A DNA stretch of 5,125 bases, from the IMG/VR virus record IMGVR_UViG_2690316166_000021, one strand, 5' to 3'. Source of the DNA: a virus. Taxonomy: Duplodnaviria; Heunggongvirae; Uroviricota; Caudoviricetes. The notes beneath the pieces are model-generated. The model was not told the origin of the DNA and ran no database searches. It saw nothing but the letters and a program-made list of their open reading frames with translations. How positions within the stretch are numbered: the first letter of the stretch is position 1; each line of letters starts with the position of its first letter. The translations under genes were made by a program, and so were the position numbers. Below, in pieces: positions 4,240 to 5,061 of this stretch.

Positions 4240-5061
4240 TTACCTAGTTACCTTTTTTAACTGCCGCTCAGCCCATGCTTCTTCAATATCAAACCGGGTC
4301 ACCAGCGCATCATAAAATTTCTTAACTGTTTTTTCCCATGACGCGCGTGTTATCTGGTTTGTCACCTCGCATATAGCATTAAATGCCTCCGTTGATGGTA
4401 GTCTTTCATAGCCACGACCACCACAACGCTGGCAGTCTCTGATAACAGGCATACCACGTTTTACCGACTCTTCACGATGAATGGCGACACCACGCCCACG
4501 GCAATCCTTACAGGCGGTGGAAACCTCACCCTTTCCGCCACACTCCGGACAGGCAACTTTTACCACCTCCCTGACTTTTTTCCATTCTTCCCAGTAAGAC
4601 GGATACACACCTTTCGTACACTTTGCCCATACCGGCGGCTTACCATCCGGATACTGGACCTTGTTTGTAAAAACTACGCTTTCAATAAATTTTTCCCCAT
4701 AGCAACAAGGGCACTGCTTTTTACTCGCTGCGCTGCGGGCATAATCCTCAAAAGCGTACGAAGCCATAATGCGCATCACTACCGGTTTTATTTCTGCCGG
4801 AAGTTTTCTCAACGCCGCCACACGATCGCACCGACTGAGTGCATAATCTGCCAGTAATTCTGTTGCCCGCGCCCTGTCATTCATACTGATGCCCATTTTC
4901 CCCAGGAACGCAGAAAACCCCATCTCAGCCCGATTCTGTGTCATGCCCTGCGCGGCCATCACATCAGTGATACTCAGCGCATCTTTTGACGTTGAGGCCG
5001 ATGCATCGGTCAGGCAAGGGGATTTTGGGGAGTAGTATTTCGGTAAATCTTCCAGTTTCAT
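4240..5061 (-). CDS. Q: late-gene antitermination protein Q, lambda-Q family, 273 aa, with Cys-rich insertion
   Basis: Translation MKLEDLPKYYSPKSP...ITDVMAAQGM...FYDALV...KKVTR aligns, from memory, with lambda Q (MRLESVAKFHSPKSP...GTDVMAAMGM...LYDALV...NAVTR), including the CxxC...CxxCGGxGY zinc-binding region (CKDC...CQRCGGRGY). Correct genomic context: PR'-like promoter and terminator immediately downstream. Confidence 0.9.
   Translation of the reverse strand: MKLEDLPKYYSPKSPCLTDASASTSKDALSITDVMAAQGMTQNRAEMGFSAFLGKMGISMNDRARATELLADYALSRCDRVAALRKLPAEIKPVVMRIMASYAFEDYARSAASKKQCPCCYGEKFIESVVFTNKVQYPDGKPPVWAKCTKGVYPSYWEEWKKVREVVKVACPECGGKGEVSTACKDCRGRGVAIHREESVKRGMPVIRDCQRCGGRGYERLPSTEAFNAICEVTNQITRASWEKTVKKFYDALVTRFDIEEAWAERQLKKVTR

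Follow-up and report, generated by a model that had tools for sequence, protein, structure and literature searches.

The stretch of DNA analysed here (the window) is the 5,125-nucleotide viral record IMGVR_UViG_2690316166_000021, and its minus strand carries at 4240..5061 the gene of a Q antiterminator (273 amino acids plus stop codon), a member of the Q-lambda family in its phi80/QuuQ-type long form. What sets this Q apart from lambda Q is an internal segment of 68 residues that is predicted to form a second zinc ribbon. The protein scored 183.7 bits against the Pfam profile Antiterm (PF03589, cutoff 26.7), phrog_127 ('anti-termination protein Q-like') covered it over its full length (E 1.4e-110), and chains of lambda Q were its top matches in the PDB both by sequence (phmmer) and by predicted fold, where Foldseek returned 7ubn_Q with E 9e-14. 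Homology to lambda Q spans the N-terminal region that forms the nozzle, the body, and the C-terminus with its helix-turn-helix; residues G39, L268 and T272 align with G39, L202 and T206, which are functionally important in lambda, and C184, C187, C210 and C213 align with the CRDC and CGRC of the four-cysteine (Cys4) lambda arm. On every testable feature the window protein is by its sequence a Q-lambda family antiterminator, and antitermination activity is predicted for it.

Residues 1-113 aligned with residues 1-113 of lambda Q (7ubm_Q, 207 amino acids) and residues 182-273 with lambda 116-207 (phmmer against PDB chains, E 1.5e-40). Because the body and the C-terminal part align on either side, the extra length must be internal: residues 114-181 (4519..4722, minus strand; delimited with HMMER to 7ubm_Q, MAFFT and AlphaFold2) stand in place of two lambda residues, a net gain of 66. 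An earlier sequence-only reading had given the two proteins 273 and 207 amino acids, and both lengths were correct (open reading frame and J02459, respectively). It had also placed ~65-70 additional residues at 4513-4725, which corresponds to residues 113-183, between a YARSAA segment and a CKDC...CQRCGGRGY motif. This size agrees with the net gain, and the position agrees with the flanks of the aligned gap, namely YARSAAS on one side and CKDC (184-187) and CQRCGGRGY (210-218) on the other. The alignment with lambda Q and QuuQ-like Q proteins that it had proposed as a check was run as well, and put the extra length at neither the N- nor the C-terminus.

Four cysteine knuckles, M1 to M4, follow one another in this part of the protein, and all lie on the minus strand. 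The first, M1, is CPCC (C117, C120; 4702..4713), where the family consensus reads CDCCxGxG. It leads into a long beta-hairpin (4552..4689) with strands at 125-136 and 159-170, delimited from the DSSP assignment of the AlphaFold2 model and from the alignments, and with a variable tip at residues 137-158. The hairpin returns to M2, CPEC (C171, C174; 4540..4551), which together with the following GGKG makes a CxxCxGxG motif and fits the DnaJ_CXXCXGXG and Anti-TRAP profiles. The lambda-type zinc-ribbon arm comes next (residues 182-220, aligned to lambda Q 116-154; 4402..4518), with M3, CKDC (184-187; 4501-4512), in the place of lambda CRDC and M4, CQRC (210-213; 4423-4434), in that of CGRC. All of the extra cysteines that the sequence-only reading had listed, CPCC at 117-120, C148 and CPEC at 171-174, are therefore present, but C148 sits in the hairpin tip, outside the putative site, and is not conserved.

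Conservation was evaluated in two alignments: a close set, in which 107 full-length homologs share 54-98% identity with the window Q, and a diverse set of 36 modules drawn from close homologs and from representatives of 50%-identity clusters, reaching down to 26% identity. C117, C120, C171, C174 and G176 were invariant in the 107 close homologs, as were C184, C187, C210 and C213 of the lambda-type ribbon, and all eight knuckle cysteines were invariant in the 36 diverse modules too. The glycines that follow the knuckle cysteines (CxxCxG) are invariant across the family, and at the column of C148 the commonest residue was D, at a frequency of 0.33. Conservation extends from the knuckles into the base of the hairpin, with F125, I126, V130, F131 and K134 after M1 (F125, F131 and K134 invariant) and V163, E165 and V169 before M2 (V163 and E165 at least 90%). 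The middle residues 135-162 vary in sequence, and the distance between M1 and M2 ranges from ~10 to ~60 residues across the family. Given the invariance in both alignments, the knuckle cysteines are not a chance occurrence. Between the window Q and phi80 Q, identity amounted to 37/68 residues (54%) in the extra ribbon against 111/269 (41%) in the whole protein, so the ribbon is constrained no less than the rest.

Several natural variants of the module were encountered among the homologs. P0004 (272 amino acids, 16 member sequences, 88% identical) reads KNSA-LLSRKK where the window Q has KKQCPCCYGEK. The change looks like a compensated frameshift that removed the M1 cysteines and kept M2-M4, and P0004 is a natural test case for the need of the first knuckle. 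In the chimeras P0192, P0194, P0199 and P0200, unrelated N-terminal parts are joined to the C-terminal half of an SfV/QuuQ-type Q; the Q-like part begins at KELCQHC (M2) in P0192, P0199 and P0200 and just after M1 in P0194, a pattern that points to a place within the zinc module where recombination or mosaic joining recurs. M3 varies as well: it is CxC (e.g. CRC) in phi80 Q (L002:11138-11947) and in the majority of aligned diverse representatives, and CxxC in the window Q, lambda Q and QuuQ.

The fold was predicted in two AlphaFold2 runs, one on the full protein (mean predicted local distance difference test score, pLDDT, of 84.9) and one on the module by itself, for which a more diverse alignment was used (79.4). 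Both gave the same elements for the extra segment, with a pLDDT of 75-87 across it: a short strand (114-116), M1, a strand (125-136), the tip, a strand (159-170), M2 and a short strand (179-181). The lambda-type arm follows with a strand at 192-194, a helix at 196-202 and a strand at 207-209. At the level of prediction, the best reading of the extra segment is a zinc-ribbon pattern with its knuckles at the base of a beta-hairpin, arranged in tandem with the lambda ribbon. A tetrahedral metal-site geometry is predicted from this topology together with the conservation, and it is the invariance of C117, C120, C171 and C174 that points to zinc binding by these residues in a four-cysteine site. 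The suggestion of a second metal-binding module has in this way gained support, from the invariant Cys4 set and its following glycines as well as from the zinc-ribbon pattern of the models.

The extra module is not peculiar to the window Q, since phi80 Q and the QuuQ of E. coli K-12 have it too. A megablast search at >=80% identity matched the Q gene region in 2621/5426 complete E. coli genomes, which label it 'antitermination protein'. The closest protein cluster (98% identity) holds 3739 member sequences, and the precomputed Pfam labels of homologous proteins already include PF00684, the DnaJ cysteine-rich domain. Four knuckles were found in 28 of 33 diverse full-length representatives and in the Q of SfV, ES18, mEp237 and phiEt88, against two in lambda Q. 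Judged by the length of tblastn matches, Fels-1 and Stx2c-converting phages have the long form, and lambda, P22, HK97 and HK022 the 207-residue form. As a sequence class the second ribbon is already known: phi80/QuuQ-type Q proteins carry it widely, and databases annotate it. A literature search for a second zinc site in Q, whose reach did not extend to Guo and Roberts 2004 and Vorobiev 2014, found no description of one.

In a neighbour-joining tree built from body columns only and without support values, the short forms lambda, P0181, P0260 and P0163 took four separate positions, P0163 being a close sister of the long-form P0133. As the short forms are scattered, repeated clean loss is more parsimonious than repeated gain at one site. 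The four-knuckle form is probably the usual and ancestral architecture of the Q-lambda family, lambda Q probably lost the module, and the Q proteins of lambda, P22 and HK97 would be reduced forms. The term 'insertion' used in the sequence-only reading consequently holds relative to lambda, but does not describe the family, where the four-knuckle form is in the majority and the short forms look like repeated losses.

The late promoter unit PR', which the window Q presumably serves, lies at 4136..4234 on the minus strand. The promoter scan left it uncalled (8/12 matches), and it was found by alignment to the PR' regions of lambda, phi80 and SfV. Its -35 hexamer TTGATT (4234-4229) starts a few bases past the Q stop codon and is followed by the spacer motif TTCCGGAA (4227-4220), at the place where the phi80 record annotates the Q site TCGCGGA; the -35 and -10 marked in that record occupy equivalent positions as well. 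The -10 hexamer TAAATT (4212-4207) comes 16 nucleotides after the -35 and is preceded by TGG, making it an extended -10, and a -10-like pause element, AACGAT (4200-4195), begins 6 nucleotides after the -10. This spacing is the same as in lambda, phi80 and SfV, so the extra ribbon comes without altered promoter geometry. The unit closes with an intrinsic terminator (4159-4136) called by the terminator scan. This terminator is ~40-65 nucleotides downstream, and a constitutive PR' transcript would be only ~65 nucleotides long, far below the lambda 6S RNA. Such a short transcript could be a small RNA like those described for Stx-phage PR' (PMC7547250).

On balance, residues 114-181 are somewhat more probably than not a self-contained Cys4 zinc ribbon at the hinge between body and arm, an accessory module that belongs to the usual architecture of the family. 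C117/C120 and C171/C174 would sit at the base of a two-stranded beta-hairpin with strands of ~12 residues and a variable tip, and this ribbon would be placed at the hinge, where the helical Q body meets the lambda-type arm (C184/C187/C210/C213). The two ribbons would then form four CxxCxGxG-type knuckles in tandem, presumably with two zinc ions per monomer against one in lambda Q. The core is expected to work as in lambda: Q would bind the Q-binding element between the -35 and -10 of PR', would then be loaded onto the sigma-dependent paused polymerase, and would finally set its N-terminal nozzle at the RNA-exit channel, a mechanism that the conserved N-terminus would preserve.

As to what the extra ribbon may add, the lambda structures offer a frame. 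The body of lambda Q consists of residues 61-113 and 153-207 and the arm of residues 114-152, and the arm swings by ~75 degrees on its hinge upon DNA binding (PMC9388147). Residues 110-112, 117 and 122-126 contact the zinc-binding domain of the RNA polymerase beta' subunit and are proposed to block swivelling, and in the loading complex the upstream DNA bends toward the same domain (PMC9388147). The extra ribbon of the window Q would emerge between the equivalents of lambda 110-112 and 117, i.e. among the residues touching the beta' zinc-binding domain, where it could stiffen the hinge, enlarge or stiffen the contact with that domain, or touch the upstream DNA bent toward it. The ribbon is likely an accessory contact in the Q-loading complex. 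A bolder version can be offered only tentatively: that the two-ribbon form is both ancestral and dominant, and that its extra ribbon establishes a contact absent from lambda Q, in either the loading or the loaded complex. It might clamp the beta' zinc-binding domain more extensively, for instance, or hold on to the upstream DNA.

The ribbon may instead read DNA: its hairpin, which is basic (net charge +4), would touch the Q-binding element or the promoter DNA beside it and determine which site the Q of each phage recognises, a reading that I consider unlikely. It draws on the neighbouring lambda arm, which contacts positions 11-13 of the Q-binding element via residues near its zinc ligands (PMC9388147), and on the hairpin tip, which differs between phages as would be expected of a specificity element. 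Moreover, the window, mEp237, phiEt88 and phi80, which have similar hairpins, share a TTyCsCGrAA-like spacer motif that is missing from SfV with its different, short hairpin; this comparison comprises only five promoters. The promoter itself speaks against the idea: the distance between -35 and -10 and the position of the pause are as in lambda, so that a longer site would not fit between the hexamers.

A further alternative concerns the pairing of the knuckles rather than the role of the ribbon. Instead of pairing in tandem, all four could build a DnaJ-type nested two-zinc centre, M1 with M4 and M2 with M3, and in lambda-like forms, once M1 and M2 were gone, M3 would have taken M4 as its new partner. 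In its favour, the isolated module reached 33.9 bits on Pfam DnaJ_CXXCXGXG (cutoff 32.7), M2 and M3, which lie nine residues apart, could be aligned with the one Cys4 site present in anti-TRAP (2bx9; NF058604), and DnaJ zinc-finger domains were the only structural neighbours other than Q, all with weak scores. Nevertheless, a nested centre seems rather improbable, and tandem pairing is favoured on three grounds. The M3 and M4 cysteines are the only ones in the sequence of the lambda Q arm, and that arm binds one zinc (PMC9388147); short Q forms of independent lineages have lost M1 and M2 jointly and retained M3 and M4; and in the AlphaFold2 models a single long hairpin runs from M1 to M2, and the lambda arm has M3 at one end and M4 at the other. 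Tandem pairing also fits the way in which the models bracket ribbon 1 by the strands 114-116 and 179-181, and ribbon 2 by the single bridge residues 183 and 218. Two further approaches were uninformative as to pairing or origin. An hhalign comparison of ribbon 1 with ribbon 2 matched one knuckle only (17 columns, probability 77%), too little for an internal duplication, and a search for variants that had lost a single knuckle yielded only the chimeric or truncated proteins starting at M2 and the M1-less P0004, neither of them decisive.

It is also rather doubtful that the module is a dispensable structural decoration that has no specific partner and is kept mainly through folding together with the arm. 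Lambda, P22 and HK97 Q do work without it, it was lost repeatedly and cleanly, and P0004 variants lack the M1 cysteines. Yet little or no variation is seen in the eight cysteines and the hairpin base over the whole range of the diverse set, and between the window Q and phi80 Q the module is better conserved than the rest of the protein.

Finally, a frameshift, gene fusion, mis-called open reading frame or mobile insertion such as an HNH cassette, to which a weak match to phrog_559 ('HNH endonuclease', E 0.0014) and the four chimeras could be taken to point, has practically no chance of explaining the extra length and is refuted by full-length alignments, given the continuous frame, the homology over the full length to phi80 Q, QuuQ and hundreds of proteins of 260-277 amino acids, and the recurrence of the gene region in the 2621 E. 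coli genomes. An HNH endonuclease was rejected separately: residues 114-181 contain no histidine, and the phrog_559 match spans the cysteine knuckles only.

The wider neighbourhood was read from the matching genomes, in which the locus is the late-control region of a lambdoid prophage: upstream, Q is preceded by rusA and a DUF968 gene, and downstream come cargo genes, tRNA genes, iraM, the holin and lysis genes. An open reading frame on the plus strand of the window (151-486), convergent with the late operon, matches the region annotated in those genomes as the gene of the anti-adapter protein IraM. Two parts of the window are masked as N, 605-833 and 1443-4051, the second, ~2.6 kb long, separating the PR' terminator from the tRNA/iraM region. 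The first masked block is flanked by an 86-nucleotide direct repeat (519-604 and 897-982, 99% identical, 378 nucleotides apart), each copy of which opens with the GC-rich hairpin AGCCCCTCCGGAGAGGGGCT. ARAGORN found no tRNA in the unmasked sequence of the window; in the matching genomes, genes for tRNA-Arg and tRNA-Ile occupy this interval. The distance from Q to the tRNA genes is larger in the window than in the genomes examined (~1.7 kb including a DNA methyltransferase gene, and ~0.15 kb in E. coli 042), and on account of this larger interval the window prophage would carry different cargo there, the content being masked.

Q controls when late genes are switched on, and some prophages express cargo such as toxins under its control as well; all mechanistic and structural knowledge of the Q-lambda family comes from lambda Q, which is without the module found in most members. 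Should the ribbon contribute contacts to DNA or polymerase, it would be relevant to predicting Q/promoter specificity and late-gene output in many E. coli prophages. Should the two-ribbon form moreover prove to be the ancestral one and make an extra contact, the lambda-based structural model would describe a stripped-down minority of the family, and the long-form Q proteins, which occur in many E. coli prophages and some Stx-converting phages, might have other loading requirements, another anti-pausing strength or another dependence on NusA. The second ribbon itself is a common variant and not a new kind of element, ordinary and little studied.

Among known systems, a parallel is found in the DnaJ cysteine-rich domain (PF00684) and in anti-TRAP, whose repeated, zinc-binding CxxCxGxG knuckles the Q module resembles. 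M2 (CPECGGKG), M3 (CKDCRGRG) and M4 (CQRCGGRG) fit this motif and M1 (CPCCYGEK) deviates from it, although the family consensus at M1 is CxxCxGxG. The match of the isolated module to PF00684 covers M2-M4 only, and the whole Q stayed below the cutoff of that profile with 28.4 bits. The match to TIGR02349 (DnaJ) was confined to residues 163-218 and scored 27.9 bits against a cutoff of 377, and a Pfam search of Q for a J domain gave no match. The window Q differs from DnaJ in having neither J domain nor chaperone context, in the long hairpin between M1 and M2, and in a pairing that is probably tandem. The module is best described as DnaJ-like in motif and probably in chemistry, but not as a member of the DnaJ family by context, and probably not by topology.

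Lambda Q (207 amino acids; PDB 4MO1, 7UBJ-7UBN) shares with the window Q the arm cysteines, the position of the gene and the layout of PR', pause element and terminator, and differs in having 2 residues where the window Q has 68, and one zinc ribbon where two are predicted. QuuQ/YdfT of the K-12 Qin prophage (b1559, 250 amino acids) and SfV Q are 40% identical over their full length and carry four knuckles in the same order, but M1 and M2 are joined by a shorter hairpin of another type, with ~31 residues between the knuckle cysteines against 50 in the window Q.

The most complete likeness is to phi80 Q (gp17, JX871397, 269 amino acids), of which Guo and Roberts 2004 (J Bacteriol 186:3599) is said to be an experimental study. 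Like the window Q, it is composed of an N-terminal region, a body, a 68-residue extra ribbon (54% identical, against 41% overall), a lambda-type arm and a helix-turn-helix C-terminus. Its extra-ribbon knuckles are CDCC and CKPC, its PR' is laid out as in the window, and its annotated Q site TCGCGGA resembles the TTCCGGA of the window. It differs in M3, which is CRC instead of CKDC, in its diverged sequence and in its cognate DNA site, and is on sequence grounds the closest studied relative of the window Q.
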